Shown piece after piece: positions 31,709-63,621 of a DNA stretch of 64,000 nt (its first letter is position 1; each line of letters begins with the position of its first letter). The notes below the pieces were generated by a model. It had not been told where the DNA came from and did not search any database. It saw only the letters and a program-made list of their open reading frames with translations. Made by a program: the position numbers and the translations under genes. The DNA comes from Escherichia phage UB. The stretch lies in the sequence record MH383160; one strand, 5' to 3'.

Positions 31709-31965
31709 TGTTTATTCCATTCTTTTTTGGCCTTGATGGTTTTATATTGGATTTGGTTTCTTAATGCTGATAAGTATCGTTGAATGAACAGATCTTGATA
31801 GTTTGTTCCAATGAATTTCATAAGATAAAGTTCACCGTTGATAACATCCACTTCAGGTGCACCATATAAGGCATTGTTTTTTCTAAGGGCATGGATTAAA
31901 GAGAATAGGGCAGTTTGATACTCAACTCCTGATAAAGTCTTCATGTTTTGTGAGCAAATAATCAT
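31693..31965 (-). CDS. LGT-QE family small protein (hypothetical)
   Basis: ORF track 90 aa; core FIGTNYQDL. Confidence 0.55.
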   Translation of the reverse strand: MIICSQNMKTLSGVEYQTALFSLIHALRKNNALYGAPEVDVINGELYLMKFIGTNYQDLFIQRYLSALRNQIQYKTIKAKKEWNKQCDKD

Positions 31966-32179
31966 CTAGTTTATCCTGTATAACATTCGTTAATTGTTCG
32001 ATATATTCTGTGCAAAACTTATCTTGATATTGAGTCCCCATAAAGTACAGCAACCATAGCTCATTAACTTTAGCTCGCATTTGGTTCCATGTAAGGCTGG
32101 GGTCACCGTAGACTATCCTTGTGATGGGGGTTAGTTTACGAATTATAGTTTCAAATTCATCATCAGTTAAGTGTTTCAT
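31922..32179 (-). CDS. LGT-QE family small protein (hypothetical)
   Basis: ORF track 85 aa; core FMGTQYQDK. Confidence 0.55.
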   Translation of the reverse strand: MKHLTDDEFETIIRKLTPITRIVYGDPSLTWNQMRAKVNELWLLYFMGTQYQDKFCTEYIEQLTNVIQDKLDDYLLTKHEDFIRS

Positions 32180-32394
32180 TTACATTTGTCCCTTATTAGA
32201 TCAGTGAGGGCAACTATGTGTGCAACAACATACTCTTCCTGAAAGTTCGTCCCCAGTACAGCCATCATGCGTATATCGGTGGTGTTTATCCTGTGTTCCC
32301 TTACACATAAACCTTCTGTGTGAGGAAGTGTAAAATATTTGTTTATTGCAGCAACGATAATTTTATTCTTCTCGGAGTTACTTAAATGTTTCAT
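32176..32394 (-). CDS. LGT-QE family small protein (hypothetical)
   Basis: ORF track 72 aa; core VLGTNFQEE. Confidence 0.55.
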   Translation of the reverse strand: MKHLSNSEKNKIIVAAINKYFTLPHTEGLCVREHRINTTDIRMMAVLGTNFQEEYVVAHIVALTDLIRDKCK

Positions 32395-32603
32395 AGTTTA
32401 CTCCTGATATAATTCTGAAGTGCAATTAAGTATTCCCCTACATAATACACCTGAAAGTCTGTATCAAGGAATGCACCCATAAGTAAATCTTTTTCTAATA
32501 CCCTTGATAAGTTAAGGTCTGCATTTGAAAGGTATATAAGTAAGATTTCACCCTGTGCGGAATTGAAACGTTTCTTATATTCTTCTGATGTTAAAAAAAT
32601 CAT
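32391..32603 (-). CDS. LGT-QE family small protein (hypothetical)
   Basis: ORF track 70 aa; core FLDTDFQVY. Confidence 0.5.
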   Translation of the reverse strand: MIFLTSEEYKKRFNSAQGEILLIYLSNADLNLSRVLEKDLLMGAFLDTDFQVYYVGEYLIALQNYIRSKL

Positions 32604-32815
32604 AATTTGCTCCTGATATATTTCTCAAGAGATGACAAATACTTTTCCTCATAATACTTCTGATAGTCTGTTCCTAAGAATGCACCCAATAGTATATCAT
32701 TTTCCAATACCTCGGCTAAGTTTAAATCAGAAGTCTCTTCGTATATTATGAGGATTTCAAGTTGTCTGGCAGCGATGCGTTCAGTATATTGATATGAGTT
32801 TTCTATAATAATCAT
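32600..32815 (-). CDS. LGT-QE family small protein (hypothetical)
   Basis: ORF track 71 aa; core FLGTDYQKY. Confidence 0.55.
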   Translation of the reverse strand: MIIIENSYQYTERIAARQLEILIIYEETSDLNLAEVLENDILLGAFLGTDYQKYYEEKYLSSLEKYIRSKL

Positions 32816-33021
32816 AGTTTACTCTTAATATCTTCTATTAAAAATCGAATCCATTCTTCAACATAATCTTCCTGATGGTTTGTGTTCAGTACAGCCAACA
32901 TGCGGATCTCTGCTCTTGCAACTTCAATTTCAGTTTTAGGAAGGTCTTTGCTGATATCCACCATTAAGTCCATGTATTTCAAGATAAGACCGTATGATTG
33001 GGTTCGTGTTATAGTTTTCAT
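32812..33021 (-). CDS. LGT-QE family small protein (hypothetical)
   Basis: ORF track 69 aa; core VLNTNHQED. Confidence 0.5.
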   Translation of the reverse strand: MKTITRTQSYGLILKYMDLMVDISKDLPKTEIEVARAEIRMLAVLNTNHQEDYVEEWIRFLIEDIKSKL

Positions 33022-33218
33022 TGTTTCCTCGTGGACAATATTTTATTTTTCAATGTATCCATATATTGAATCACCCATCTTTCCTGATAGTTAGTTCCCA
33101 AAGTAATCAAAAGGTATAACTCCATTCGTTCTACGTGTGTGTCTGTATTATAAATCTTTGTGAAGTTTTTACGTAACAGTGATTGATATTCTTCTTTATT
33201 TAAAATACGCATTTTCAT
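33018..33218 (-). CDS. LGT-QE family small protein (hypothetical)
   Basis: ORF track 66 aa; core TLGTNYQER. Confidence 0.55.
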   Translation of the reverse strand: MKMRILNKEEYQSLLRKNFTKIYNTDTHVERMELYLLITLGTNYQERWVIQYMDTLKNKILSTRKQ

Positions 33219-36275: not shown

Positions 36276-36467
36276 TTAAATTTTATTTCCGATATAGTCC
36301 GGCCTGTTCTTTTCGGTCATACGCTTAAGCATTTTTTGCATATGGCTTATTGCTTGTAGTGTATCCTCTTCCAGGGATGAATCGAGATAATCAGGATCAT
36401 TCTTTACCTTGCAATGATTATGATAGCGTAGTACTGCCAGTACTTTTTTAACTTCTTCAACTGTCAT
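36276..36467 (-). CDS. hypothetical protein
   Basis: ORF track 63 aa; 4-nt overlap with upstream gene. Confidence 0.5.
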   Translation of the reverse strand: MTVEEVKKVLAVLRYHNHCKVKNDPDYLDSSLEEDTLQAISHMQKMLKRMTEKNRPDYIGNKI

Positions 36468-36736
36468 AATAAGTACTCCACTTCGTTAGCTTTCAGGTTA
36501 GTATCAATCATCAGTGGTTTTTTGTAGTCCACAAAACGATTAGTTTTCTCGATGGCGAATCCCATATAATCCAGCTTACTTACCGTGCATTCATTCTTAA
36601 AAACTTCTTTCGCTGCATTGATGGCTGATTCAATTGATAACCGACCATCTAAGTTAATGTTTCCAAATGATCCACCAGCAGAAGTAGGATTACCGTTCAT
36701 ATCTTTAATGATCATAGTAGCGGAGTAGCTAGACAT
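36464..36736 (-). CDS. hypothetical protein
   Basis: ORF track 90 aa. Confidence 0.6.
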   Translation of the reverse strand: MSSYSATMIIKDMNGNPTSAGGSFGNINLDGRLSIESAINAAKEVFKNECTVSKLDYMGFAIEKTNRFVDYKKPLMIDTNLKANEVEYLL

Positions 36737-46336: not shown

Positions 46337-46564
46337 TTAATTTAATTCATCCAGGCAAAGGATACGCTCAACGCCCAAATCAGTTAAACTAATGGTCGGC
46401 ACTTGATAGGTTTCAATGTATGCTACAGTTGCCCACTGACCGAACTCATTAACGGCCCAGGTATTCATTGCATTTTGCAATTCCGCACCTGCCTTGTTAG
46501 TAATGACTGCAACTACTTGTTCGTTGCCAGTAGTACCAGATACGCGAGTAATGATAATAGCCAT
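46337..46564 (-). CDS. hypothetical protein
   Basis: ORF trimmed to ATG 46564 (MAIIITRVSG) with AAGGAA RBS; upstream codons are translated 5'UTR. Confidence 0.55.
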   Translation of the reverse strand: MAIIITRVSGTTGNEQVVAVITNKAGAELQNAMNTWAVNEFGQWATVAYIETYQVPTISLTDLGVERILCLDELN

Positions 46565-46619
46565 TGTTTTGATTCCTTTGATTTGGAAGGAGAACCGTTT
46601 TCCCCTCTCGATGTAAAAC

Positions 46620-46647
46620 ATTATACGCTAATCTATTAATCATGCAA
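46620..46647 (-). promoter_or_regulatory. sigma70-like promoter
   Basis: minus strand TTGCAT-N16-TATAAT. Confidence 0.55.
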
Positions 46648-51163: not shown

Positions 51164-51526
51164 TTATTCGTAAATCTTGCCACTGTCAGCCCATACCAGG
51201 AAACGAGGCATATTATCCCATGCATCTTGTTTTAAATTTAAACCGTGTAATACTTCTGTACTTTCCATTCCTGGTACTGGTTTACTATACACCGCGAACA
51301 ATTCACCCATATACTGATAAGCCATCGTTAAATCACTTGCGATCATCTTATGGATCATCGCATCAAGCATCACGGTAGCGGCGTATTGTTCACGCTTAAG
51401 CGGTAACATTGCAATAAGTTCCCGATAAGCTGAAATGTGAATTTTTACCGTTTCTGCCGGAAGATCTTTCATCTCGTCGCGGAAGTTAACCAGGTTAGCA
51501 ATAATTTTATTGATTTGAGTAGCCAT
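51164..51526 (-). CDS. hypothetical protein
   Basis: ORF trimmed to ATG 51526 (MATQINKIIANL); first gene of the early-like block. Confidence 0.6.
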   Translation of the reverse strand: MATQINKIIANLVNFRDEMKDLPAETVKIHISAYRELIAMLPLKREQYAATVMLDAMIHKMIASDLTMAYQYMGELFAVYSKPVPGMESTEVLHGLNLKQDAWDNMPRFLVWADSGKIYE

Positions 51527-51581
51527 CGTTTTAATCTCTCTTAAAGTGTAGCGGGAAGTGTTCCCGCTCTCGATGTAAAAC

Positions 51582-51609
51582 ATTCTACACCTTTCCCAAT
51601 ACTTTGCAA
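51582..51609 (-). promoter_or_regulatory. sigma70-like promoter
   Basis: minus strand TTGCAA-N16-TAGAAT. Confidence 0.5.
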
Positions 51610-51845
51610 GTACTTTCTACAAATACTTTTAAAATAGTTTTCTTTCTATATAGGAGTACTATCATTCAGTACTGCTACACTAGAATCAATCAACCAAATC
51701 ACTACTATACCCCATAAAACGGCCTCAGACGCATTCTAACGCATTAATACACCTAAGCTATACATTTGCACCGCCACCAGCTAACCAGGGCTTTACGATG
51801 CGTTTAAACGCGTTAAATTATTTTCAATTATTTTGTTTTTTGCTA

Positions 51846-51873
51846 TTGACTCAGTACTAAAAAAGCGTATAAT
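51846..51873 (+). promoter_or_regulatory. sigma70-like promoter on plus strand
   Basis: plus strand TTGACT-N16-TATAAT, directed toward the iteron region; no ORF downstream. Confidence 0.4.
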
Positions 51874-52061
51874 TACTACATAGACGCGAGAAAGCGGATA
51901 TCCCAAGGGGTGCGGAATTGTGCCCAAAATTCAAGATATAAAAAAAAGGATACACTCCCGCACCCTAGCAGGTCAAAGCACTTTCTCAGTACTGAATCAT
52001 AGTACCATAGTACGCCCCAGGATGGCAAGCAAATTAATTAAAACTTTTTTCATCCAGGGTA

Positions 52062-52089
52062 TTGCTTTATTTTTCCAGTACTGTATAAT
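52062..52089 (+). promoter_or_regulatory. sigma70-like promoter on plus strand
   Basis: plus strand TTGCTT-N16-TATAAT followed by AGCCCACCGGGTGC box (52116..52129). Confidence 0.4.
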
Positions 52090-52187
52090 AGTTTCATCAA
52101 GTCGAGAAAGACTATAGCCCACCGGGTGCATAGTTACGCCCAAAATTTCAGTACTAGATTATTTTTTAAAAATATTCATCCAGGCGG

Positions 52188-52216
52188 TTGACATTGCCCC
52201 CAGTTTATTAGATAAT
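52188..52216 (+). promoter_or_regulatory. sigma70-like promoter on plus strand
   Basis: plus strand TTGACA-N17-GATAAT immediately upstream of the iteron-like repeats. Confidence 0.4.
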
Positions 52217-52312
52217 GATTCCAGATTCAGAAAAATCTAACTCCAGATACTGCGGGGAAACTATCCCCACGCGGTAGGGGAACTATTGGAAAAAAACAAA
52301 ATAAAATTTTGA

Positions 52313-52500
52313 TTTAGCCGTCTATACTTCCAGACGTGTAACCATCTAGCCGTTTAGCCGTCCAAACGTCTAGCCATACAGCCATCCAGAAATCTAGCCG
52401 TTTAGCCGTCTAGATAGATAGCCATCTTTACTTCCAGACTTCTGGAGGGCTAGACATATCTACGTCCAAAATCCATCCAGGGTAACTACGCCCAAAATCC
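52313..52500. repeat. iteron-like direct repeat array (candidate replication origin or protein-binding array)
   Basis: TAGCCGT x5 and TAGCCAT x2; 19-mer ATCTAGCCGTTTAGCCGTC repeated at 52344 and 52392 (48-bp period); CCAGA motifs; non-coding. Confidence 0.45.
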
Positions 52501-52622
52501 GTCAGTACTATACCATAGATCTATCTTTTGAAAGGGAGTATTCAGTACTGCCACAATAGCCCTCACTGTTACTGTAGGAGGATGAAGACTATCATGTAGT
52601 ACTGAATACTGTTAGAGGGAAC

Positions 52623-52642
52623 CCACCAGCTTGTGCTGGTGG
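52623..52642. other. strong GC hairpin
   Basis: perfect 8-bp stem CCACCAGC-TTGT-GCTGGTGG, no U-run. Confidence 0.4.
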
Positions 52643-52826
52643 CATAATGCTTTAGATTAAAATCAGTACTAATACCATTCTGTTAATATCAGTACTGTTA
52701 TTACGATTTTCATATGAGGTTCAAAAAGATGTACCACCACAGGAGGAACTATCTTTTCTGTACTGTCTCACGACAGGAGGTAGAGTAAATGAATTGTTCG
52801 CAGCAACTCATCTCTCTATGTAGAAC

Positions 52827-52854
52827 ATTATACAGTACTGAATCATAATGTCAA
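52827..52854 (-). promoter_or_regulatory. sigma70-like promoter
   Basis: minus strand TTGACA-N16-TATAAT, directed leftward into the non-coding iteron region. Confidence 0.45.
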
Positions 52855-53492
52855 TAGCTTTCTTTCATTATTCAGTACTGATATTCTTGAGAACTACCCG
52901 ACTACAAACATCATTATATCCCACAAATCATAAACGTCCCAACGTAAATTTCAACTTTCGAAGATCCAACTTTTATTTCATAGGTACTCCAAAATTTTTA
53001 GGATCGAGATTTAGGATGGAGTACTAACCAACTTTTTGCTGGAGCCTCAAGGGGTAATGGAATTTTACCCCGAAGGGTAAAGGGGTAATTGAAATTAAGG
53101 TGAAAGTAATAATTCAGTACTAATCATTGCGTGATTACTTTTGATTACATTTGATGTAATTTGAAAAATGGAAAAGGAGCTTGGAAACTACAAAGTACGG
53201 CAGACTTCCTCTGCCTACTTAGTGGCATATTAGTACTGAATCATTCACACACATTTCCGTGCATTCTTGAGCAATCTTGTCTATACTAATCAGTACTGAA
53301 TCATATATAATCATTCTGTGATTCTACGGTGCTCATATAAATGTTTATATATGATTACTTATGACTACCTATGATTACGGGGTTTAGCCTGGGGAGAATC
53401 CTAGTGATCGCATTTGTCCAGGCTGAATTTTAACAATTCGCCTGTACATAAAGGTTGTTCACTAGGAGCTTCCCCTGTCTACTTGTGTTTAA

Positions 53493-53693
53493 TTACTTCC
53501 TATATATAAGCATTAAGATATAGTAGTACTGATTGTACTGTACATTCTCTTTAATATTATAAGGGTCTATAGCAATCTCGGTACATCTGTTAAATGCATA
53601 TCTATTAAATGCCAGTGGAATTATAGATCTAATCCATACTTGTTCATTTTCTTTTAGTTTACTTATATAGAAGTTTTTATACTCTTTATGCAT
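53493..53693 (-). CDS. MHKEYY family small protein (hypothetical)
   Basis: ORF track 66 aa; MHKEYKNFY...YYILMLIYRK. Confidence 0.55.
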   Translation of the reverse strand: MHKEYKNFYISKLKENEQVWIRSIIPLAFNRYAFNRCTEIAIDPYNIKENVQYNQYYYILMLIYRK

Positions 53694-53706
53694 AGTATTA
53701 TGTCTA

Positions 53707-53889
53707 TTAATATGATAGTACTAGTGTTAGTACTGAGCACAATTTTTCTTTATAGTTCTTAGGGTATATAGAATCTTTTATGCACTCATTGAAGTGCCAT
53801 AGGTATAATCTTGGGTCGCATTCTTTATATATTCTTACGGGGACGAATGTTAGTTTTCTTATATAGAATTCTTTATGTTCTTTATTCAT
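53707..53889 (-). CDS. MHKEYY family small protein (hypothetical)
   Basis: ORF track 60 aa; MNKEHKEFY... Confidence 0.55.
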   Translation of the reverse strand: MNKEHKEFYIRKLTFVPVRIYKECDPRLYLWHFNECIKDSIYPKNYKEKLCSVLTLVLSY

Positions 53890-53890
53890 A

Positions 53891-54079
53891 TTAGTACCTG
53901 AATATAAGTAGGATTATGTTATAGTACTGGTTAGTACTGCAATGATTCTCTATACATCGATTAACAGTTATGGAATAGCTATATCTGGCGTAAGCATTAT
54001 CCAGCGGGATTTTACATTGAGCACTTAGAGAAAGTACAGTAGGTAGTGTATTCAAATAGAAGTCTTTGTAATTATTCAT
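53891..54079 (-). CDS. MHKEYY family small protein (hypothetical)
   Basis: ORF track 62 aa; MNNYKDFY...YNIILLIFRY. Confidence 0.55.
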   Translation of the reverse strand: MNNYKDFYLNTLPTVLSLSAQCKIPLDNAYARYSYSITVNRCIENHCSTNQYYNIILLIFRY

Positions 54080-54281
54080 ACAGGAATAGTATACCTATGA
54101 TGCCGGAGTACAGGTTAGTACTGTTACCATCTTCATTTGCGTTTAAAGTCATTTGAATACAATTATTGTAGCATACTCTGCCGAAATATGTATTAGTACT
54201 TAAAGGTGGTGTAGTCCTTAGAAACATTTGTTCTGAGGGGCTTATGTATTTGGAGTAGAATTCTTTATGTTCTTTATTCAT
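54072..54281 (-). CDS. MHKEYY family small protein (hypothetical)
   Basis: ORF track 69 aa; MNKEHKEFY...; near-duplicate of 57255..57464. Confidence 0.55.
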   Translation of the reverse strand: MNKEHKEFYSKYISPSEQMFLRTTPPLSTNTYFGRVCYNNCIQMTLNANEDGNSTNLYSGIIGILFLYE

Positions 54282-54286
54282 ATTAG

Positions 54287-54472
54287 TTAGTGTCTGTATA
54301 TAAGTAATAGTAAGAATACGTACTGCACATCTTCATCTTTAGTATTGAGTACTGTACGTATTGCGTCATGGAACAAGAATATAGTACTTGGGTCATGAAA
54401 ATTTAAAGGGGTTCTGGGTACGGCACATTTGTAGTTCCCTTTAACAAATTGTGTGTAGTATTCTCTATGCAT
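54287..54472 (-). CDS. MHKEYY family small protein (hypothetical)
   Basis: ORF track 61 aa; MHREYY...LLLLIYRH. Confidence 0.55.
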   Translation of the reverse strand: MHREYYTQFVKGNYKCAVPRTPLNFHDPSTIFLFHDAIRTVLNTKDEDVQYVFLLLLIYRH

Positions 54473-54473
54473 A

Positions 54474-54659
54474 TTAGTACCTATATATTAGGGCGAGAAT
54501 GTAGTACAATTCATATGGAATGTAATTTGGGGTGATCGCACACTGTGTATGGTAAATGAATTGTTCGGTATTTTTCTTATCCTTGATATCTATTGGGATT
54601 TGTGGTATAAGCATTTGGGAGTTTAGATCGAGATGGCTTAAGTAGAATTCTTTATGCAT
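54474..54659 (-). CDS. MHKEYY family small protein (hypothetical)
   Basis: ORF track 61 aa; MHKEFY...YYILALIYRY. Confidence 0.55.
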   Translation of the reverse strand: MHKEFYLSHLDLNSQMLIPQIPIDIKDKKNTEQFIYHTQCAITPNYIPYELYYILALIYRY

Positions 54660-54668
54660 ATTGTTCTC

Positions 54669-54857
54669 TTAGAATACGAAAGCTAGGTACAGGGTATGAT
54701 ACAGTACTCGATGATAGCTGTCAAAATCTAGTATACATGCTTTAGTACACATAGTAAAATACACTTTATCATTTTGTGCATTGATACCGCGAGGTTTATC
54801 TAATAGATTAGTTCTGAGGTACATTGGGAAATATTTTGTGTAGTATTCTTTATGCAT
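54669..54857 (-). CDS. MHKEYY family small protein (hypothetical)
   Basis: ORF track ORF trimmed to ATG 54857 (MHKEYYTKYFPMYL). Confidence 0.55.
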   Translation of the reverse strand: MHKEYYTKYFPMYLRTNLLDKPRGINAQNDKVYFTMCTKACILDFDSYHRVLYHTLYLAFVF

Positions 54858-54858
54858 G

Positions 54859-55041
54859 TTAGTACCTGAATATAAGTAGGATAGTGTTATATAGCTGGTC
54901 ATAACTACTACTATTTTCTATACTTCGTTCTATGCAGTTATTGAATCCAAGTACTGCCAAATCGTTATCCAGAGGGACTTTATATCTGGCGTAGTGTTCA
55001 AAAATGCTGGGGAGAAATTGTTTGTAGTATTCTTTGTGCAT
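54859..55041 (-). CDS. MHKEYY family small protein (hypothetical)
   Basis: ORF track 60 aa; MHKEYYKQF...YNTILLIFRY. Confidence 0.55.
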   Translation of the reverse strand: MHKEYYKQFLPSIFEHYARYKVPLDNDLAVLGFNNCIERSIENSSSYDQLYNTILLIFRY

Positions 55042-55051
55042 ATTGTTCTCT

Positions 55052-55240
55052 TTAGTACTTGAATATTAGGGCGAGGATGTAATACAGTTTATATGTTCTA
55101 TCCTCGTACATTAGGGTGTACTTAGTACATTCTTGGAACATTGTTTTTGCGTCATCTTTTATGCCCAATGTAACGTTTGGTATAAGGCTTTGTAGATACA
55201 TTGGGAGTTTCTCTATGTAGTATTCTTTATAGTTGTTCAT
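55052..55240 (-). CDS. MHKEYY family small protein (hypothetical)
   Basis: ORF track 62 aa; MNNYKEYYIEKLPMYL...YYILALIFKY. Confidence 0.55.
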   Translation of the reverse strand: MNNYKEYYIEKLPMYLQSLIPNVTLGIKDDAKTMFQECTKYTLMYEDRTYKLYYILALIFKY

Positions 55241-55248
55241 ATTATGTG

Positions 55249-55428
55249 TTATTTCGTGAAAACAAGGGTTAGTACTGCATAGTACAAGTCATACGTATCT
55301 TTAGGGTTAATAGCACCTTTAATACATTCTTTCATTAATTCATTATAGATAATTTTAGTACTGAAGGTATTGGATGTTACTATATCGGAATTAAGGTACG
55401 ACAAGTAGAATTCTTTATGTTTGTGCAT
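55249..55428 (-). CDS. MHKEYY family small protein (hypothetical)
   Basis: 59-aa ORF MHKHKEFYLSYL...YYAVLTLVFTK; below ORF-track cutoff. Confidence 0.45.
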   Translation of the reverse strand: MHKHKEFYLSYLNSDIVTSNTFSTKIIYNELMKECIKGAINPKDTYDLYYAVLTLVFTK

Positions 55429-55429
55429 A

Positions 55430-55615
55430 TTAGTACTTATATATTAGTAAAAGGATGTGATACAGTACTCGATTATAGTCTTCAATATATATCGAGGATT
55501 TAGTGCACTGAATGAAGTAGTCTTTTTCGTAGTTTTTTTCTATACCCAATGGTTCTGTTGGTAGAAGGTGTTGGAGATACATTGGGAGTTTCTCTATGTA
55601 GTATTCTTTATGCAT
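55430..55615 (-). CDS. MHKEYY family small protein (hypothetical)
   Basis: ORF track ORF trimmed to ATG 55615 (MHKEYYIEKLPMYL). Confidence 0.55.
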   Translation of the reverse strand: MHKEYYIEKLPMYLQHLLPTEPLGIEKNYEKDYFIQCTKSSIYIEDYNRVLYHILLLIYKY

Positions 55616-56273
55616 AGTTTGTAATATACGTAATGAGGTGATGCATTTTCTTATTAGTACTGATAATTTCCTGTACATGTTTTGTCAGATTGTACGCGTT
55701 TTTATAGAGTACTGGATTATCGATTACAGTACTGTACATGAATAGTTCTTCTTCCTGTAGTTCTTTGTGTTCTAGTTCTTTGAGGAATTGCAGTACTGTA
55801 TCAGTTTCGTCAGTAGGTTGTGCTTGCCAGAAGTGCATTTTCTCGTGTACTTTTTCTGATCCTACGTAGTATCCATCACCGATTTGGAATTGAGCACTAC
55901 TGATATCATTTGGTGTATTACAATTCACGAATAGGTATACGTTTCCATAAGAGATATTCAAAACACACGGGATACCATTTAACTGTATAGTTAAGCCGAA
56001 ATATACGTTTTTTATATTTTTAGTACTAGTATTAGTACTCAATACTTTTAAATCAGTATTATAGATATTCGCATAATCAATAGAGATATTATTTTTCTTC
56101 AAGTACGATTTGAGGTTCTTAGATACGAGAACTGTACTGAATTTATCCTTTTTATTTCGTTTCTTTAGTACATTAGGGTGATAAGTATATGAAGATGTAA
56201 CTGATTCTGCTTGAATACTGTTGAGGTACTTAAAGTGCTTAAGGTATTGTTTACTGTGTGCATTAAGTTTCAT
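55608..56273 (-). CDS. FQ-motif family protein (hypothetical), outlier copy inside MHKEYY array
   Basis: ORF track 221 aa; motif EEELFMYSTVID. Confidence 0.6.
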   Translation of the reverse strand: MKLNAHSKQYLKHFKYLNSIQAESVTSSYTYHPNVLKKRNKKDKFSTVLVSKNLKSYLKKNNISIDYANIYNTDLKVLSTNTSTKNIKNVYFGLTIQLNGIPCVLNISYGNVYLFVNCNTPNDISSAQFQIGDGYYVGSEKVHEKMHFWQAQPTDETDTVLQFLKELEHKELQEEELFMYSTVIDNPVLYKNAYNLTKHVQEIISTNKKMHHLITYITNYA

Positions 56274-56283
56274 TTGGTTTCCT

Positions 56284-56463
56284 TTATATAGATGCCAGGG
56301 CGAGGATTTCCCTGTAGGGATTATCTTGTGTTAGTACAGAATAAATGCAGCTATTGAGATTAATATTTTTAGTACTTTTTGTTCCTAGTTTGTAGTAATC
56401 AACGAATGTGTCGTACATGAAACGGTCTTTTATGGTTATACGTTCTATATAGAATTGTTGCAT
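56284..56463 (-). CDS. MHKEYY family small protein, divergent (hypothetical)
   Basis: 59-aa ORF MQQFYIERITIKDRF...; below ORF-track cutoff. Confidence 0.4.
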   Translation of the reverse strand: MQQFYIERITIKDRFMYDTFVDYYKLGTKSTKNINLNSCIYSVLTQDNPYREILALASI

Positions 56464-56471
56464 AGTATTCC

Positions 56472-56654
56472 TTATATAGAGATTAGTTTCATTACTTCTC
56501 TGTATGTGTACTTTTCGTTTTGTGCATCTCTTGTGACGACATATAGGAAGGTGTGTTTATCTTTTTTGTTCCCGCAATTGTAGAAAATATTGAACTTATT
56601 GAAGTTGAATCTTTCGGCGTGTTGTAGTTTAGTTAAATAGAATTCTATGTTCAT
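56472..56654 (-). CDS. MHKEYY family small protein, divergent (hypothetical)
   Basis: ORF track 60 aa; MNIEFYLTKL...KYTYREVMKLISI. Confidence 0.5.
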   Translation of the reverse strand: MNIEFYLTKLQHAERFNFNKFNIFYNCGNKKDKHTFLYVVTRDAQNEKYTYREVMKLISI

Positions 56655-56662
56655 TTTATTCC

Positions 56663-56848
56663 TTACATTTCAATAAGTTTAAGTACTGCTCGGTACGTGT
56701 ACTTAGTTGTCAGTGCTTCTTTAATAGAAACACAGAAGTAATGTTTTTTGTCTCTTATACTGCCGCGTTTGTAGTACCACACATGGGAGTTGTGACTGTA
56801 CTTGTCTCTGTCGGATAGTTGTTGGTAGTAGTAGCTTATATGATTCAT
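56663..56848 (-). CDS. MHKEYY family small protein, divergent (hypothetical)
   Basis: ORF track 61 aa; ...KYTYRAVLKLIEM. Confidence 0.5.
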   Translation of the reverse strand: MNHISYYYQQLSDRDKYSHNSHVWYYKRGSIRDKKHYFCVSIKEALTTKYTYRAVLKLIEM

Positions 56849-57057
56849 TATAATGTAATTAGCCTTACTATATTAAAGTACTCGGTTCCTGGTGTACCTT
56901 GTAGTATATTACGCACGACATTTTTTTGGTGCTGGATGATTGCTGAAGGTGCGGTTCTTTTTAGTTTTTTTAAAGTACTGAATTCTTGTTTAAGTATGAA
57001 CTGTACATCTTTAGGGAGAATATCTATGTAGTACTGATGAATGTTTGTAGTTTTCAT
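56848..57057 (-). CDS. MHKEYY family small protein, divergent (hypothetical)
   Basis: ORF track 69 aa; MKTTNIHQYYIDILP... Confidence 0.5.
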   Translation of the reverse strand: MKTTNIHQYYIDILPKDVQFILKQEFSTLKKLKRTAPSAIIQHQKNVVRNILQGTPGTEYFNIVRLITL

Positions 57058-57067
57058 ATAGCACCTT

Positions 57068-57262
57068 TTAGAACTTAAAGATGAGGTTCAGGATAGAGCG
57101 GTACTTAGTTTCAGGGAACTGATGTTCTATTGCATAACGTGTCGCCATCCTGAAATCGTAATTGTAATATAGATTATCCTTTCTCATAGGTGGTGCTAAA
57201 GAGAATGATAGCTGGTCTTGCTTGTGTAGTTTACTACCATAGAAATCTTTATGATTATTCAT
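57068..57262 (-). CDS. MHKEYY family small protein (hypothetical)
   Basis: ORF track 64 aa; MNNHKDFY...LNLIFKF. Confidence 0.55.
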   Translation of the reverse strand: MNNHKDFYGSKLHKQDQLSFSLAPPMRKDNLYYNYDFRMATRYAIEHQFPETKYRSILNLIFKF

Positions 57263-57464
57263 AGAAGTAGATTAGTCCTATTAAACCTGAGTACATAATA
57301 TTTTTGTTATTGCATTCGATTGCTTCTAGAGTACTACGTATACAATTATTAAAGCAATCTCTACCGAATTGAGTATTGGTACTTACAGGTGATACACTCC
57401 TTAGAAACAATTGTTCTTCGTTGCTAAGGTATTTGGTGTAGAATTCTTTATGTTCAGTATTCAT
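57255..57464 (-). CDS. MHKEYY family small protein (hypothetical)
   Basis: ORF track 69 aa; MNTEHKEFYTKYLS... Confidence 0.55.
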   Translation of the reverse strand: MNTEHKEFYTKYLSNEEQLFLRSVSPVSTNTQFGRDCFNNCIRSTLEAIECNNKNIMYSGLIGLIYFYE

Positions 57465-57465
57465 A

Positions 57466-57669
57466 TTAGTACTCGATTAATAGGGTAAGGATGTAATAGT
57501 ATTGCATACATTCTACCCCTTGTAAAGCATTTCTTATGTTATTATTCCTGTACGAGTTCAGGAGTTTAGGGCTACGTTTGAGGTGTTTGAAATTAGTTTG
57601 TGTATGCAGTAGGCTTTCACGTAGACCTTTTGTTGGTAGTGCATCGATGTAGTACTGTTCGATATTCAT
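57466..57669 (-). CDS. MHKEYY family small protein, divergent (hypothetical)
   Basis: ORF track 67 aa; MNIEQYYIDALP...YYYILTLLIEY. Confidence 0.5.
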   Translation of the reverse strand: MNIEQYYIDALPTKGLRESLLHTQTNFKHLKRSPKLLNSYRNNNIRNALQGVECMQYYYILTLLIEY

Positions 57670-57893
57670 ATAGATAGCAGTACTAAGATTTTTGATAATT
57701 GTTTATTGCTATCCCCGCAGATGTTGCTGTGTAAAATACTCACAATGAGGGTATCAATTGCATTGTTCATCATAAGGGTGCATCCTGGACTATTATAATT
57801 TTTTAGCTCAATTAGCCACGAACTATCCGAGAGAAATTCCCCGTACTCTAGTTCATTTAGAGTATTGAGGTAGTACTTAAGAGTATTTGTCAT
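57666..57893 (-). CDS. MHKEYY family small protein, divergent (hypothetical)
   Basis: ORF track 75 aa; first gene of array; AAGGAG RBS. Confidence 0.5.
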   Translation of the reverse strand: MTNTLKYYLNTLNELEYGEFLSDSSWLIELKNYNSPGCTLMMNNAIDTLIVSILHSNICGDSNKQLSKILVLLSI

Positions 57894-57908: not shown

Positions 57909-57937
57909 TATTCCTTCTATAGTACACCAGTACTGAA
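57909..57937 (-). promoter_or_regulatory. sigma70-like promoter for the MHKEYY array
   Basis: minus strand TTGACA-N17-TACTAT in the divergent intergenic region. Confidence 0.45.
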
Positions 57938-57964
57938 AGGATGTCAAGGGTTTTCTTTATGGGG

Positions 57965-57979
57965 TAAATATGATATAAT
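57965..57979 (+). promoter_or_regulatory. -10-only promoter-like element (candidate late-type promoter)
   Basis: TAAATATGATATAAT followed by GAATAAGGAGG RBS; no -35 match. Confidence 0.35.
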
Positions 57980-57995
57980 GAATAAGGAGGGAAAT

Positions 57996-59132
57996 ATGTT
58001 ACCTTTTGCAAGAATGATGAATTATGGGAACGTAGCACCAGATAAACTAAAAATACGTGATATTGTTGCAGGTGCTAATTCATTATTACTAATAACAGAG
58101 GATAATGAATTATGGGTGCGTGGTAATAATGCGTATGGCAAATTAGGTATAGGAACTGATACTATAGTGAATGTAACCGAGTGGACTAAAGTTAGAGATG
58201 ATGTTAAGTTTGCTTGTGCTAGTAATTTAGTATGCGTTGTATTAACTGTAGATAATAAAATTTTATACTGTGGTGATGAATGGTTTGAATCTGGTGGTTC
58301 GACAAGTTCTAAAGTTGTTACATGGAAAGATGTTACGACACAATTTAGTGCAGTGAATCTAAGCACAGTTCGTGAAATGAAAATAACTTATTATTGTGTA
58401 GGATTACTTACAAATGATAATAGATTATATGCTAAAGGATATGATAATAACCAATCATTTGGTGGTTCAACAAGCAAAGTTAATGCTGTATTAGTTGCGT
58501 CAAATGTTTCAAAATTCTACACTTCTCTATCTGGTACTATATATTCTAGTACTACTGGTGGTTACTATCGCTGTGGTATAAGCAATACTGGAGCATTGGG
58601 TACTAGCACAAATTTAACTTCTTATAATTTGTACTCTGCTCCCGAATTTGCATCCGAATGTGCAGTTGGTATGTCAACATTAAACTCTGGTATATTATAT
58701 TATGATACTAATGGTATCACTAGATATGTTATAGCAGGTCAAAATAGAAATTATCAACTAGGTAATTCTTCTTCAAATACCACAAACGTATATTCGTATA
58801 CAGAATTAACCGGATATAGAGGCAGGTTTAGGGATTTGTGGAGTGATATGAATAACTCTGTTCTTTCTTTTGCTATAAGCACAGATGGCAATACTTTATA
58901 TTATGCTGGTACTAACAATACACTATCTTCTGGTGATCCTGGTGTTGAATATTCATCTGCATTCAAAGAAGTACCACACGGGTTTAATGATATAACAAAG
59001 GCGGCATCGTTAGCATATCTATCTATAGTGCAAGATTCAACGGGATGGTATTATTCTGGAAATGCAACTACGTTATATGGTTTGCCATCGAGTGGTGAAT
59101 TTATACCATTACCATTACCAACATTAATTTAA
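57996..59132 (+). CDS. RCC1-like repeat (beta-propeller) protein, MLPFARM paralog family
   Basis: ORF trimmed to ATG 57996 after AAGGAGG; repeats GNNAYGKLGIG, GYDNNQSFGG, GQNRNYQLGN. Confidence 0.6.
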   Translation: MLPFARMMNYGNVAPDKLKIRDIVAGANSLLLITEDNELWVRGNNAYGKLGIGTDTIVNVTEWTKVRDDVKFACASNLVCVVLTVDNKILYCGDEWFESGGSTSSKVVTWKDVTTQFSAVNLSTVREMKITYYCVGLLTNDNRLYAKGYDNNQSFGGSTSKVNAVLVASNVSKFYTSLSGTIYSSTTGGYYRCGISNTGALGTSTNLTSYNLYSAPEFASECAVGMSTLNSGILYYDTNGITRYVIAGQNRNYQLGNSSSNTTNVYSYTELTGYRGRFRDLWSDMNNSVLSFAISTDGNTLYYAGTNNTLSSGDPGVEYSSAFKEVPHGFNDITKAASLAYLSIVQDSTGWYYSGNATTLYGLPSSGEFIPLPLPTLI

Positions 59133-59138
59133 ATATAG

Positions 59139-59169
59139 GCCAGTACTTGATACTGGCTTTCTTTTTTTT
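59139..59169 (+). terminator. intrinsic terminator
   Basis: GCCAGTA-CTTGA-TACTGGC then T-rich run. Confidence 0.6.
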
Positions 59170-59172
59170 GTA

Positions 59173-59188
59173 TTAAATATAGTATAAT
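59173..59188 (+). promoter_or_regulatory. -10-only promoter-like element
   Basis: conserved TTAAATATAGTATAAT immediately before GAATAAGGAGG. Confidence 0.35.
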
Positions 59189-59204
59189 GAATAAGGAGGG
59201 ATTT

Positions 59205-60314
59205 ATGTTACCTTTTGGAAGAATGGTTAAGTACGGAAATATTGTACCTGGTCCTAAAAATATAATTAAAGTTGGTGCTTCTACACAAGGTCAATTCTTA
59301 TTGACTGATTCACATGATTTATATTACATAGGTAGAAATCAAGGTGGTGAATCTGGAAATGGTAATACCAACACGGTATCTTCATGGATATTAGTAAGTG
59401 CAGATGTTTCTAATTTTTTCGTGGGTGATCGTACACTTGTTATTATTAAAAATGATAATACTATATGGACATCAGGTCAAACGTACTGGTTCTCATCTTC
59501 TACAACTACTTCTTACAGTACTGTATTAGTTGAAAGGACTAGTTGGTTTACCACGGCTATACCAGTAAGTGAGATTGCTAATATTGTATGTACAAATGGT
59601 TTAATATTTGTACTTAGCACTAATTCAGTACTCTATGGTGCAGGAGATAATGGATATCGTGGTTCTTTGGGTATTGGTTCATCATCAATTTATACATTAA
59701 CTCAATGTGCTACGAACGTTCGTAAAGTAATGACAAATGCGAATGATAGTATGTATCTTACATTAGATAATAAGCTATATAGTTCTGGATGGAATAGTAG
59801 TGGGCAGCATGGTACGGGGAACCAAACACAAATTAATACTTGGGGATTACGTAGTTCTGGTGTAATCGATGCAGCAATTGGTGGTAATGCATTAAATTAC
59901 TATAATGGTACATCATATTTCGTATGTGGTCAAACTCCAAACTTTCTTAGTTCAGGTACGACTACATTCCGTGCAGTTCCTGTAAGTACTTTGCCTAATA
60001 GTTCTCCGTTGTTTATGACGAATTCACCTGCATTAAATACTGCTACACAAATGGTAATTACTAGTACATATCAGAAGGGTGTTGGGGCGAACCGTGGTTT
60101 GGGATTAAACAATTCTCAAACTGGTGCTATATATAGTGCTACCAATTTACAATTACCCGTTGAAGTTAGTGAGATTAGGGATGTTCTTTTTAGTGATGGT
60201 TTGACATCGATATTAACCAAAAATGGAGATGTGTATAGTACTGGATCGTATTACGCCATTCCAGGTGCAATCGAGGATGTTGCAGTCTTTACTAAAATTG
60301 ATTTACCAAAATAA
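59205..60314 (+). CDS. RCC1-like repeat protein, MLPFGRM paralog family
   Basis: ORF trimmed to ATG 59205; repeats GDNGYRGSLGIG, GWNSSGQHGTG. Confidence 0.6.
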   Translation: MLPFGRMVKYGNIVPGPKNIIKVGASTQGQFLLTDSHDLYYIGRNQGGESGNGNTNTVSSWILVSADVSNFFVGDRTLVIIKNDNTIWTSGQTYWFSSSTTTSYSTVLVERTSWFTTAIPVSEIANIVCTNGLIFVLSTNSVLYGAGDNGYRGSLGIGSSSIYTLTQCATNVRKVMTNANDSMYLTLDNKLYSSGWNSSGQHGTGNQTQINTWGLRSSGVIDAAIGGNALNYYNGTSYFVCGQTPNFLSSGTTTFRAVPVSTLPNSSPLFMTNSPALNTATQMVITSTYQKGVGANRGLGLNNSQTGAIYSATNLQLPVEVSEIRDVLFSDGLTSILTKNGDVYSTGSYYAIPGAIEDVAVFTKIDLPK

Positions 60315-60320
60315 CATAAT

Positions 60321-60350
60321 GCCAGTACTTGATACTGGCTTTTATTTTTT
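60321..60350 (+). terminator. intrinsic terminator
   Basis: GCCAGTA-CTTGA-TACTGGC then TTTTATTTTTT. Confidence 0.6.
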
Positions 60351-60352
60351 GA

Positions 60353-60368
60353 TTAAATATAGTATAAT
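60353..60368 (+). promoter_or_regulatory. -10-only promoter-like element
   Basis: TTAAATATAGTATAAT before RBS. Confidence 0.35.
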
Positions 60369-60384
60369 GAATAAAGGAGGAATT

Positions 60385-61572
60385 ATGTTACCTTTTGCAA
60401 GAATGGTTAAGTACGGGAATAAAGTCATTCCATATGTTCCCAATTTTACTAAATTAGTCACCCCAGCAGTTGGTTATTCATTTACATGCACAATGCTGCT
60501 GGATGTAAATGGATCAGTGTGGGCTATGGGTCTTCAGAATGGTGGAATTTTTGGGTTAGGGAATACTACACAGGTTACTGAATGGACAAAAATATATAGC
60601 AATGTTAAAGATTTTTGGTGCAGTACAGGGAATGGGTTTTGTCTAATACGAACAAATGATGATAGATTCTTTTATAGTGGTTTAGATAAATGGCTAGGTA
60701 ATAATACAACAAATACTGTAACAACATTCACTGAATGTACGAGTTATTTTACACAATTTGGTATTTCAAAAATCAAAGAGATATATGTAGGTCTTGATTA
60801 TGCTTTGATTTTAGGTACTGATAATAGTTTATATTTGTTAGGTGATAATAAAAATTCAAAGTTTGGTTTAAACACTGCATCATATTTTAATAAATTTACA
60901 TTTTTAGTCGATAATGTTAAAAAATTCTGTTCATCCATCACACCCTCTAACTGGATTATTAAACTAGATAATACAATATGGCGTACTGGGACAACATCTC
61001 ATGGAACGTTGGGAAATGGAGTTCAAAACACATATATATTTCCTTGGGTTCAATATAAGGGCACACCTGTTACCGAAGCTATAGACGTTTTTTGTAGTGC
61101 GAGTTATATTGGTATTATAACTAAAGGTACACCAGAATCATGTCCTATGTATACAATGGGCTATCAAGCTGATGGTCAGTTGGGTAATAATACTACAGCA
61201 GGGGGTTATAAATTAACGCCAACGTTATCGAAAACCGTTCCAGATGATAGTGAATTCATTCGAATTGAAAACATCTCATCCCGTGGCCTGGTATATTATA
61301 GCTCTGGTAAAATTTATAGTACTGGTTATAATAACAATGGTCAATTGGCAAATAACAGTACAATTAATTCTGGTTCATTTGTTGAAGCAATTTTACCTGA
61401 TGGTGTTAATTTTAAGAAAAGTGAATCACTTGTAGCTGGGAACGATGCAACGTTGTATATGTACATTAATAATAAATTATACTACGCGGGGAAATCCCCT
61501 GATAATATTTCAGCAAGTAGTTCATCTGTCATGAAAGAGTTCCCACTTCCAACAATCAATGCCAGTACTTGA
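60385..61572 (+). CDS. RCC1-like repeat protein, MLPFARM paralog family
   Basis: ORF-track ORF 60223..61572 trimmed to ATG 60385 after AAAGGAGG; repeats GLQNGGIFGLGN, GYQADGQLGNN, GYNNNGQLANN. Confidence 0.6.
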   Translation: MLPFARMVKYGNKVIPYVPNFTKLVTPAVGYSFTCTMLLDVNGSVWAMGLQNGGIFGLGNTTQVTEWTKIYSNVKDFWCSTGNGFCLIRTNDDRFFYSGLDKWLGNNTTNTVTTFTECTSYFTQFGISKIKEIYVGLDYALILGTDNSLYLLGDNKNSKFGLNTASYFNKFTFLVDNVKKFCSSITPSNWIIKLDNTIWRTGTTSHGTLGNGVQNTYIFPWVQYKGTPVTEAIDVFCSASYIGIITKGTPESCPMYTMGYQADGQLGNNTTAGGYKLTPTLSKTVPDDSEFIRIENISSRGLVYYSSGKIYSTGYNNNGQLANNSTINSGSFVEAILPDGVNFKKSESLVAGNDATLYMYINNKLYYAGKSPDNISASSSSVMKEFPLPTINAST

Positions 61573-61590
61573 TACTGGTATTCTTATTTG
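61561..61590 (+). terminator. intrinsic terminator
   Basis: CCAGTA-CTTGA-TACTGG then T-rich run; overlaps stop codon. Confidence 0.55.
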
Positions 61591-61592
61591 TA

Positions 61593-61608
61593 TTAAATAT
61601 AGTATAAT
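61593..61608 (+). promoter_or_regulatory. -10-only promoter-like element
   Basis: TTAAATATAGTATAAT before RBS. Confidence 0.35.
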
Positions 61609-61624
61609 GAATAAAGGAGGAATT

Positions 61625-62812
61625 ATGTTACCTTTTGCAAGAATGATGAATTATGGGAATATTGTGCCTGTACCACTACAAATTAAGAAAATAATACCAA
61701 CTGATACTGATGTTGTTGTACTTTATACTGATGGTCAACTATACGCACGAGGAAATAATGCTTTTGGGAAGTTTGGAAGAGGCAACAACACTGCATTAAG
61801 AACATGGACATTAATTAGAGAAAACGTTAACGATTTCTGGATCACACAAGGAACTTTGTTAGTTCAAGATAATGACTTAAATTATTACTATTGTGGATAT
61901 GGTGATCATATTGGTTTACCAAGTAGTACTACTACGTTTTTAAGTTATAACCAATATATTGAAAATTTGTTCACGCAAAGTTCAAGTACTTCAATTAAAC
62001 AGATGTATGCAGGTACTACGTGGTTTACTTTCTTAATGGATAATAATACAATATGGAGTACTGGTTGGAGTGGGGGTAAACAATTCGCTGATGGTACGGG
62101 TAGTACTCAACAAATAACAGATGGATCATTTGTAAAAGCTGTCACGCCTGATGTTGATATTGCACAAATACAGTCAACAAATAACTGTGTAATGTTTTTT
62201 GATACACAAAATAATTTATATATTGGTGGTGGTACGTCAGGTATAAGTACTAGTACTACATGGACTTCATATAATGAATATACTTTATATAAACCAAGTA
62301 CAACATACACAAAAACGTTACAATACACTGGATGCTCAAGTGGTGCAGTCAGTGCTTTGGTTGAGAATCCAAGTACTGGTGCACGTCAGTTTCTAGTTGG
62401 TGGTTTAGCGAATAATGGTGCATGGGGCAACAATACCACAACCAGTTCAGCACTTGCTGTATTAGGGAGCAATAGTACGACATTACCACCCGGTACTTTG
62501 TATTCAATTCATACTGGATACCCAACACAATCTAGTATACTAGTTACGAGTACTGGTGTATATGCAACTGGTTTAAATGCGAGTAGTTATGCTGGCTCTT
62601 TGGGTGTAGGTTCTAATGTTACTATTGGTAAATTTACTGCATGTCCAATGCCTACACAAATAACATATTCTATGTATGATAAAATAAAAATATATAGAGG
62701 TTCATATCGTACATTTCTAACTGATATGAAAAATATATATTCAACCGGAACTTATGATGATGGTGGTCCTAGTACAACTAGATATGTACTAGATACACCC
62801 CGTCAATTATAA
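61625..62812 (+). CDS. RCC1-like repeat protein, MLPFARM paralog family
   Basis: ORF-track ORF trimmed to ATG 61625; repeat GNNAFGKFGRGN. Confidence 0.6.
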   Translation: MLPFARMMNYGNIVPVPLQIKKIIPTDTDVVVLYTDGQLYARGNNAFGKFGRGNNTALRTWTLIRENVNDFWITQGTLLVQDNDLNYYYCGYGDHIGLPSSTTTFLSYNQYIENLFTQSSSTSIKQMYAGTTWFTFLMDNNTIWSTGWSGGKQFADGTGSTQQITDGSFVKAVTPDVDIAQIQSTNNCVMFFDTQNNLYIGGGTSGISTSTTWTSYNEYTLYKPSTTYTKTLQYTGCSSGAVSALVENPSTGARQFLVGGLANNGAWGNNTTTSSALAVLGSNSTTLPPGTLYSIHTGYPTQSSILVTSTGVYATGLNASSYAGSLGVGSNVTIGKFTACPMPTQITYSMYDKIKIYRGSYRTFLTDMKNIYSTGTYDDGGPSTTRYVLDTPRQL

Positions 62813-62818
62813 TATAAT

Positions 62819-62849
62819 AGCCAGTACTCAGTACTGGCTTTCTTATTTG
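62819..62849 (+). terminator. intrinsic terminator
   Basis: 9-bp stem AGCCAGTAC-TCA-GTACTGGCT then T-rich run. Confidence 0.6.
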
Positions 62850-62851
62850 TA

Positions 62852-62867
62852 TTAAATATAGTATAAT
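62852..62867 (+). promoter_or_regulatory. -10-only promoter-like element
   Basis: TTAAATATAGTATAAT before RBS. Confidence 0.35.
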
Positions 62868-62883
62868 GAATAAAGGAGGAAGT

Positions 62884-63621
62884 ATGTTACCTTTTGGAAG
62901 AATGGTAAAGTACGGGAATAAAATTGAATATAAGCCAGATGGTGAACAATTAATCACGACAATAGGAACAACACAATTTACAGTTCCTGCTGGCGTTACC
63001 GAAATATCAGTATGTGTTATTTCGCCGGGTGGTCAACGTGGTGCTGGTGGCGGCTTATCGTGGCGTAATAATATTCCGGTTACTAGTGGTGAGTACTTAA
63101 GTGTTTCTCTTACACATCCCAACACTACTACACCAGTTGAAAACGGTTTATATCGTGGAACTGAAAAACTATGTGTTAGCTTCACTGGTGAATATAGGGT
63201 TGGTGGACTAGGTGGGAAAGCTGCTAACGCTATTAATGATGGTGGTGGTAATGGGGGCAACGCTGGTGTAAGTGGTGGTGCAGTCATTGGTGGTGGTGCT
63301 GGTGGCTACACTGGTAAAGGTGGTAACGGAGATGCAATCACTGGTGAAAATGGTGCTGGCGGCGGCGGTGGTGGTGGTGCATTCTATAATACCTCGTTCA
63401 TTGGTACGGGTGGTGGTACTGGTATCATTGTTCAAGGTGCTAATGGTATTGGCGGTAGATACGATGGTTCATATAATGGTGGTGCTGGTAGTGGTGGTGC
63501 TGGTAAGATGTATGGTGGTGGTGGTAGTATATGGGATAATTTTTCTTATACGGCTGCTGGTGGTGGTGCTGTGCGAATAATATGGGGACGTGGGAGATAT
63601 TATCCTAACAATTCAGTCTAA
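62884..63621 (+). CDS. MLPFGRM-family protein with glycine-rich C-terminal region
   Basis: ORF trimmed to ATG 62884; shared N-terminus MLPFGRMVKYGN; C-terminal 150 aa about half Gly (GGGAGGYTGKGGNGD..., GGGGGGGAF...). Confidence 0.55.
   Translation: MLPFGRMVKYGNKIEYKPDGEQLITTIGTTQFTVPAGVTEISVCVISPGGQRGAGGGLSWRNNIPVTSGEYLSVSLTHPNTTTPVENGLYRGTEKLCVSFTGEYRVGGLGGKAANAINDGGGNGGNAGVSGGAVIGGGAGGYTGKGGNGDAITGENGAGGGGGGGAFYNTSFIGTGGGTGIIVQGANGIGGRYDGSYNGGAGSGGAGKMYGGGGSIWDNFSYTAAGGGAVRIIWGRGRYYPNNSV

Follow-up and report, generated by a model that had tools for sequence, protein, structure and literature searches.

A divergent, basic FQ-motif gene within a small-gene array of Escherichia phage UB

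T4-like and T5-like phages carry tandem blocks of diversified small early genes for host takeover and anti-defence. Closer to the locus described here, a large array of paralogous genes in phage 121Q, the main FQ array, was already remarked on by Hua et al. 2017 (PMC5646251), a point repeated in the phAPEC6 paper (PMC7247149). Neither publication describes the motif of these genes, a second locus or the gene analysed here, q221, and a literature search returned no description of the motif or of q221. The window under study is a stretch of 64,000 nucleotides from Escherichia phage UB (record MH383160), AT-rich (30–40% GC) and occupied mostly by tightly packed minus-strand genes without known function. 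In this window the main FQ array (1911–27487, minus strand) comprises 40 motif-bearing paralogs of 103–207 aa with a median pI of 4.9, together with a few members whose motif is degenerate. The F-Q pair, found within the block EE..FQ.S(L/T)(V/I), provides the only invariant residues of the array. An AlphaFold model of the member at 14427–14915 (pLDDT 87, pTM 0.82) contains an N-terminal helix, seven strands, a short helix bearing the motif (block pLDDT about 97) and C-terminal helices. This fold was found in BFVD only among 121Q, RaK2, GAP32, Serratia BF and Yersinia fHe-Yen9 phages, always in uncharacterised proteins.

The q221 gene and its surroundings

The gene q221 (55608–56273, minus strand) runs from an ATG start to a TAA stop and encodes a divergent member of the FQ superfamily, which the PHROGs profile phrog_29152 matches over its full length (E 1.4e-115, aa 1–220 against profile positions 1–222 of 223). 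The initial annotation had described a 221-aa motif-bearing protein embedded in the MHKEYY array, 28 kb from the main FQ array, and all these facts are correct. The motif EEELFMYSTVID, at aa 174–185, is encoded at 55719–55754 (minus strand); q221 is surrounded by 19 small genes in a single co-oriented array; and the last canonical member of the main array ends at 27487, 28.1 kb away. Eleven tandem genes of about 60 aa belonging to the phrog_11711 ('MHKEYY') family lie downstream (53493–55615, minus strand), and eight tandem genes of about 60–75 aa from the same small family lie upstream (56284–57893, minus strand). The assignment to phrog_11711 comes from three small genes sampled on both sides of q221 (E 1.7e-12 to 3.6e-28), whose N- and C-terminal signatures are also carried by the unsampled ones. 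An AAGGA ribosome-binding site (56280–56284, minus strand) is found 6 nt before the q221 ATG, the TAA stop of the gene upstream occupies 56284–56286, and the q221 stop codon overlaps the ATG of the first downstream gene (ATGCATAA), as in translationally coupled arrays. Together with the intact reading frames and the dN/dS values given below, these signals mark q221 as a real protein-coding gene.

The protein can be divided into a basic N-terminal region (aa 1–87, pI 10), a variable β-rich middle (aa 88–152) and an acidic C-terminal module of FQ type (aa 153–221), with a pI of 9.0 for the whole chain. Searches of Pfam, NCBIfam and PDB sequences gave sub-threshold noise only, and the orthologs of q221 are annotated as hypothetical. 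The HMM of the small phrog_11711 family did not retrieve q221 at E values up to 100 and reached the ortholog from phage JNE01 with E 36; hhalign between the two families gave 0.1%. The small genes were also considered as fragments of long FQ genes, whose N-termini look alike, an idea dropped on the hhalign value.

Interleaving of gene families is not unique to q221, because two genes of another family lie inside the FQ array itself. This third paralog family, of about 70–90 aa and with an LGTNYQE motif, is arranged in tandem right after the FQ array (27477–33218), and its two outliers are at 12034–12225 and 25236–26045; one of them is a protein of 269 aa with an N-terminal motif and a match to phrog_4148. 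Another repeated feature is seen among the ORFs of the 34–52 kb block. Several mechanically called ORFs (36821–37117, 46337–46621 and 51164–51583; 37879–38178 and 38179–38454) begin with near-identical artificial leaders, MFYIE(R/S)GK... and MTVLKCFS...YQHG.NKM, upstream of the likely true start. The near identity of the leaders points to repeated upstream regulatory sequences in this block.

On the other side, the unit formed by q221 and the small genes is divergent from an array of RCC1-like paralogs (57978–62812, plus strand), which is the conserved anchor of the q221-lineage locus in the relatives examined. Four RCC1-like paralogs of 375–449 aa and a Gly-rich protein of 251 aa are found at 57978–63621 (plus strand) and have the N-terminus MNKEG.MLPF.RM..YGN in common. 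These proteins are 28–31% identical to the best stretches of phage E9.1, the neighbouring small genes being 95–100% identical.

The FQ-type motif and the FQ superfamily

Plain phmmer with q221 found no member of the main array at E ≤ 10. The motif was scored with a 22-column position-specific matrix trained on the 40 main-array members. The score of q221 is 23.4 bits; the runner-up among ORFs not used for training, which lies at the margin of the FQ array, has 8.9 bits, and the remainder have at most 2.7. None of 300 shuffles of 123 other minus-strand ORFs attained 23.4 bits (mean 4.3, largest 16.7), and 12 of the 40 true array members score below q221 when left out of the training. The position of the motif, 44 aa from the C-terminus, is also that of the family, the distance being 40–75 aa in 39 of the 40 array members and 40 to 52 aa in the paralogs of the q221 lineage. 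A spurious motif match, the outcome that the initial annotation itself regarded as fatal to its proposal, was checked in this way, and the match exceeds chance. With a full-length HMM of the array, q221 is the top non-member (7.2 bits over the whole sequence and 10.7 in its best domain; E 0.12 among 332 ORFs) with the motif in register; true members, each left out in turn, range from 90 down to 3 bits, five of them below 14, and q221 looks like the most divergent of them. The profile phrog_13866, a short-form FQ family, matches aa 170–203 (E 0.014) in the same register as on array members.

Where the family has a near-invariant Q, q221 and every ortholog with 66–80% identity have M, and the block FMYSTVI is invariant across 16 aligned orthologs. 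The Q is also missing in some array members (FT at 10891, FN at 5169 and FS at 6894), and a second, independent FM variant occurs in L012, one of the distant relatives. The M at this position arose as a derived state within the 121Q-like lineage.

When 1.84 billion representative proteins were searched exhaustively with a profile, only 14 clusters were returned. Nine of them, the metagenomic P0029–P0037, are full-length homologs of q221 (E 1e-17 to 1.5e-4), and eight of these nine have the canonical EE..FQ, with NP..Y-like residues behind it as in q221; the ninth, P0036, has AQ. Four sequences, P0037, P0031, P0032 and P0029, match the FQ-array HMM (E 2.5e-6 to 1.1e-4) and also an HMM built from the FM-type q221 orthologs alone (E 1.6e-4 to 5.9e-14). 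The only PHROG matched by P0035 is the array family phrog_12674 (E 4.9e-4). In addition, the JNE01 ortholog aligns with the array member at 23217–23765 over 158–165 aa with the motif in register (phmmer E 0.005; BLASTP E 0.017 as a single comparison). Membership of q221 in the FQ family, as first claimed in the initial annotation, is thus borne out by the matrix score, by the FQ-bearing relatives and by the four sequences that match both HMMs.

The wider phrog_29152 lineage contains 121Q gp256, phAPEC6 gp544c, A4_254, JNE01 WOL23036, EJP2_496 and P0029–P0037. These share with q221 homology over the full length, the N-terminal signature, an IPC(V/T)L strand, the motif and RCC1-like neighbours; the distant members differ from q221 in keeping the canonical FQ and in forming groups of 3–5 tandem paralogs, whereas q221 stands apart from the rest by its mosaic middle region. 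They define a 'long basic' subfamily of about 200–225 aa with a pI of about 8–9.6 and the N-terminus MKLN..(S/Q)K.Y...FK.

Profile comparisons place this subfamily alongside those of the main array. Using hhalign, the enriched q221-family profile gave 93.2% (E 2.9e-7) against the whole array, 93.7% against array subfamily S and 90.5% against subfamily B; array subfamilies compared with each other gave 75–96.5% over 25–56 columns, always centred on the motif, and the two negative controls (the q221 family against the small-gene family, and the q221 family reversed) gave 0.1%. In kind and in strength, the evidence joining q221 to the array thus equals that joining the array subfamilies to one another. 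Similarity between q221 and the array is limited to about 22–35 columns or residues around the motif, which is likewise the case between array subfamilies. Once the motif was taken out, the N- and C-terminal profiles of q221 and the array gave at most 0.3%, in a test of little power given that pairs of array subfamilies reach at most 2%. An AlphaFold model of q221 built with 17 orthologs has a pLDDT of 39, too low for a comparison of folds; the order of its predicted elements is similar to that of the array model.

The main array (PHROGs 13866, 12674, 9317, 38467 and others) resembles q221 in the EE..F(Q/M).S(T/L)(V/I) motif placed 40–75 aa from the C-terminus, in the predicted order of helix, β-sheet, motif helix and C-terminal helices, and in being on the same strand, in the same phage clade and not detected in virions. 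Unlike the array, q221 has M for Q, is basic and not acidic, exceeds the array members in length, carries a conserved basic extension at its N-terminus, and has a separate locus beside RCC1-like genes and a PHROG of its own. Some of these differences would fit a convergent or chance motif, in which an unrelated q221 had independently arrived at a short acidic-aromatic helix used for docking or packing: the similarity spans about 25 columns, profiles without the motif are alike in nothing, the net charge is opposite, PHROGs holds q221 apart, and the structure model is too poor to help. We hold this to be quite improbable, however, as the motif score lies far beyond the shuffled expectation, the C-terminal distance fits the family, the predicted element order, albeit of low confidence, is similar, the canonical FQ is present in relatives of q221, of which four match both HMMs, the JNE01 ortholog aligns in register with an array member, the array subfamilies are interlinked by evidence of equal kind and strength, and both families were found here only in one phage clade. 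Judged from sequence, q221 is a very divergent member of an FQ-motif superfamily found here only in RaK2/121Q-like jumbo phages. The superfamily consists of the acidic array of about 40 genes and the basic long subfamily beside RCC1-like genes; in this way a second, basic and long subfamily is added to an uncharacterised set of paralogs whose genes take up about 25 kb of a 350-kb genome.

Position, alleles and origin of q221

By megablast, the 53–58 kb region is 86–94% identical to 36 genomes of jumbo phages of the 121Q/PBECO4/G17 type (genus Asteriusvirus), from coliphages and Salmonella phages; the window thus comes from a jumbo coliphage of this group. A tblastn search located q221 homologs in 36 phage records, all of Asteriusvirus type, at one place per record. 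The orthologs are mostly 66–80% identical to q221, falling to about 43% in JNE01 and Turkey5 and to a partial match in EJP2; no database sequence is more than 80% identical to the q221 of the window. Ten genomic contexts were inspected. In nine of them (E9.1, JNE01, phAPEC6, slurp01, 121Q, Turkey3, A4, WPEC5 and G17) the homolog lies within the small-gene array and is oriented alike, including that of JNE01, which at 43% identity occupies the equivalent position and has the motif EDEMFQWSTII. The spacing between the ortholog and the main array is conserved, at about 39 kb in phAPEC6. The tenth context, EJP2, has no small-gene array at the locus: three tandem long paralogs with the motifs AELFQYTIMY, AELFVALLY and DEKMFQYSTMI, the last being the q221 ortholog, adjoin an RCC1-like gene tail-to-tail, and tandem membrane-protein genes lie upstream.

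Distant relatives have more such genes. Tandem long FQ-type genes of 196–240 aa, with a pI of 7.9–9.6 and bearing the motif, number five in L013 and L014 and three in L015 and L012. The long basic FQ genes of L013–L015 are divergently adjacent to four to six RCC1-like genes, and small genes are absent there. Beyond the FQ genes, L013 and L015 have a gene-poor gap and then homologs of the window genes 51164–51583 and 36464–36736; the slot of these FQ genes is the one held in the window by q221 and the 19 small genes. As the distant relatives have 3–5 tandem FQ paralogs in this slot without small genes, q221 looks like the resident and the small genes like newcomers. The order of events, with the small genes expanding here and not being lost in the distant relatives, is a parsimony reading of a few short contigs.

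The initial annotation had taken the position of q221 to mean that family members move or are shuffled between arrays, and had suggested inspecting the flanks for common junction sequences. Sensitive blastn of q221 and its flanks against the main array gave short matches in the motif-coding stretch only and no common junctions, and neither phmmer nor tblastn, with its one place per genome, found a close relative of q221 in the main array; the proposed movement does not agree with the single fixed position in 36 records. The view that recombination between arrays brought a main-array FQ gene, or a copy of it, into the small-gene array, as part of ongoing modular shuffling, can draw on the interleaving of families in both arrays, on the small-gene content right around q221, which varies among phages, and on the mosaic alleles described below. 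It nevertheless appears very improbable to us: position and copy number are constant even in a lineage with only 43% identity, the main array holds no member close to q221, no flank or junction sequence is common to the two loci, and the q221 lineage has its own conserved N-terminal module and, in distant relatives, its own tandem arrays at the locus. Interleaved paralog families need no movement of genes between arrays, since one family can expand around the resident gene of another.

Regarding the alleles of q221, their termini are conserved, with identities up to 91–98%, and the middle (alignment columns 90–160) is 33–71% identical, the best-matching ortholog switching from segment to segment. 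Pairwise dN/dS is 0.45 overall, with 0.38 in the N-terminal part, 0.34 in the middle and 0.75 in the C-terminal part; dS is 0.51 in the middle against 0.13 in the C-terminal part. Positive selection behind the divergent middle is without support, as its dN/dS is 0.34 and its dS is high too. Such values point to old alleles, combined into a mosaic and kept under purifying selection, and not to decay. The mosaic alleles also mean that recombination acts between alleles of q221, the sole supported sense of the modular recombination proposed in the initial annotation; an exchange between arrays is without support. Small genes near q221 are 95–100% identical to those of E9.1 and 97–98% identical in about 30 phages, and in the core of the main array the identity to G17 is 99%; q221, by comparison, reaches just 74–80% with its orthologs. 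The small-gene array has a variable part of its own, at 55052–55678 and 56472–57057, immediately around q221, where E9.1 (L001) gives best matches of 39–80% or matches displaced to another position; E9.1 has three extra small genes, and the outer parts of the array are 95–100% identical.

A further reading makes q221 a decaying relic that is drifting to loss, its divergence reflecting relaxed constraint. It would account for identities of 66–80% between phages whose neighbouring small genes are 95–100% identical, for the high C-terminal dN/dS, for the two pieces in which q221 is found in three Salmonella phage records, and for a gene that is the sole survivor of a multi-gene array. We give it little probability, as all ten phage copies that were compared as DNA keep an intact ORF, 32 of the 36 records cover 80% or more of the protein, dN/dS is 0.34–0.45 over most of the gene, the motif and the N-terminus are invariant, and the high dS of the divergent middle argues for old alleles and recombination as opposed to neutral decay.

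It is probable, in our assessment, that q221 is the last copy of a second, 'long basic' FQ array, vertically inherited in place and not derived from the main array. The long basic subfamily would originally have formed a short tandem array next to the RCC1-like genes for virion proteins, distinct from the large acidic FQ array and 28 kb from it. One copy of this second array would remain in the 121Q/PBECO4 lineage, with the Q of its motif changed to M, and the unrelated phrog_11711 family would have expanded, filling the slot on both sides of q221.

Expression, possible role and comparison with known systems

The unit of small genes and q221 is headed by a sigma-70-like promoter match, TTGACA-17-TACTAT (57919–57947, minus strand; 10/12), a match to consensus only, in a region that has fewer such matches than shuffles give. 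A terminator-like hairpin, likewise a consensus match only, follows the last small gene (53199–53215, minus strand). From this promoter at about 57.9 kb, q221 would be co-transcribed with the small genes, probably early.

The promoter spacer contains the 10-mer TTCAGTACTG, of which the window has 21 copies against 0.18 expected. Copies at 57928–57937 and 52833–52842 (both minus strand) lie in the spacers of the sigma-70-like promoters 57947–57919 and 52854–52827 (12/12 for the latter); at least two others, in genes of FQ subfamily A, are coding coincidences (YSVLEGPW, YSVLDNDW). Many copies, in both orientations, are found in a region of 1.9 kb at 51584–53493 that has no ORF of at least 66 aa on either strand, and which also includes an array with 8-nt periodicity (52319–52470) of CGTCTAGC-like units. 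This region is 85.7% identical to JNE01 over 1.8 kb, and short conserved islands of it remain in L013 and L015; adjoining it, the q221 protein is 43% identical to that of JNE01, and the small-gene query found no JNE01 small genes. A comparison with Rfam gave no match. This stretch may represent an origin of replication, a regulatory element or an RNA of unknown kind.

Mass spectrometry of phAPEC6 identified 62 virion proteins, the RCC1-like gp549 and gp551 among them, and its list contains no protein between gp347 and gp549 (PMC7247149, Table 1 for the former). As virion components of that phage, the RCC1-like proteins may contribute to the 'hairy' fibres. Because of the gap in the list from gp347 to gp549, the q221 ortholog gp544c and, by coordinates, the FQ array count as not detected in virions. 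From its context and by analogy, we infer that q221 would be an early, non-structural accessory protein or binder, absent from the virion.

The conserved acidic-aromatic FQ/FM helix would be part of the core, packing the β-sheet against the C-terminal helices. Contacts with a target in the host or phage would likely be made by the variable middle sheet and the basic N-terminus, as would suit a binder for host takeover or counter-defence. The motif also recalls the TEV protease site ENLYFQ(S/G); a cleavage site was set aside, since in the confident array model the motif is a helix within a block of pLDDT ~97 and not an exposed linker. A broader and rather unlikely proposal is that the FQ superfamily represents diversified early effectors or adaptors specific to jumbo phages, with a fold without solved relative, in which the invariant FQ helix would serve all of them for docking or as part of the core, and a hypervariable sheet would recognise different host targets; q221, with its basic N-terminus and mosaic middle, would then be a variant directed at nucleic acids or at a defence system, under arms-race dynamics.

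The q221 finding is in itself ordinary comparative genomics of hypothetical phage proteins. What is new is a divergent subfamily of an already visible uncharacterised family, useful for annotation and unsurprising to the specialist. As a single-copy, fast-evolving, non-virion member, q221 offers an easier experimental handle than the array of 40 genes.

Finally, the q221 unit can be set beside the early gene blocks of T4-like and T5-like phages. It differs from them in that no sequence or fold relation to characterised anti-defence proteins was found; what they have in common are tight, co-oriented arrays with translational coupling, products that are not part of the virion, rapid diversification and a sigma-70-like promoter upstream.
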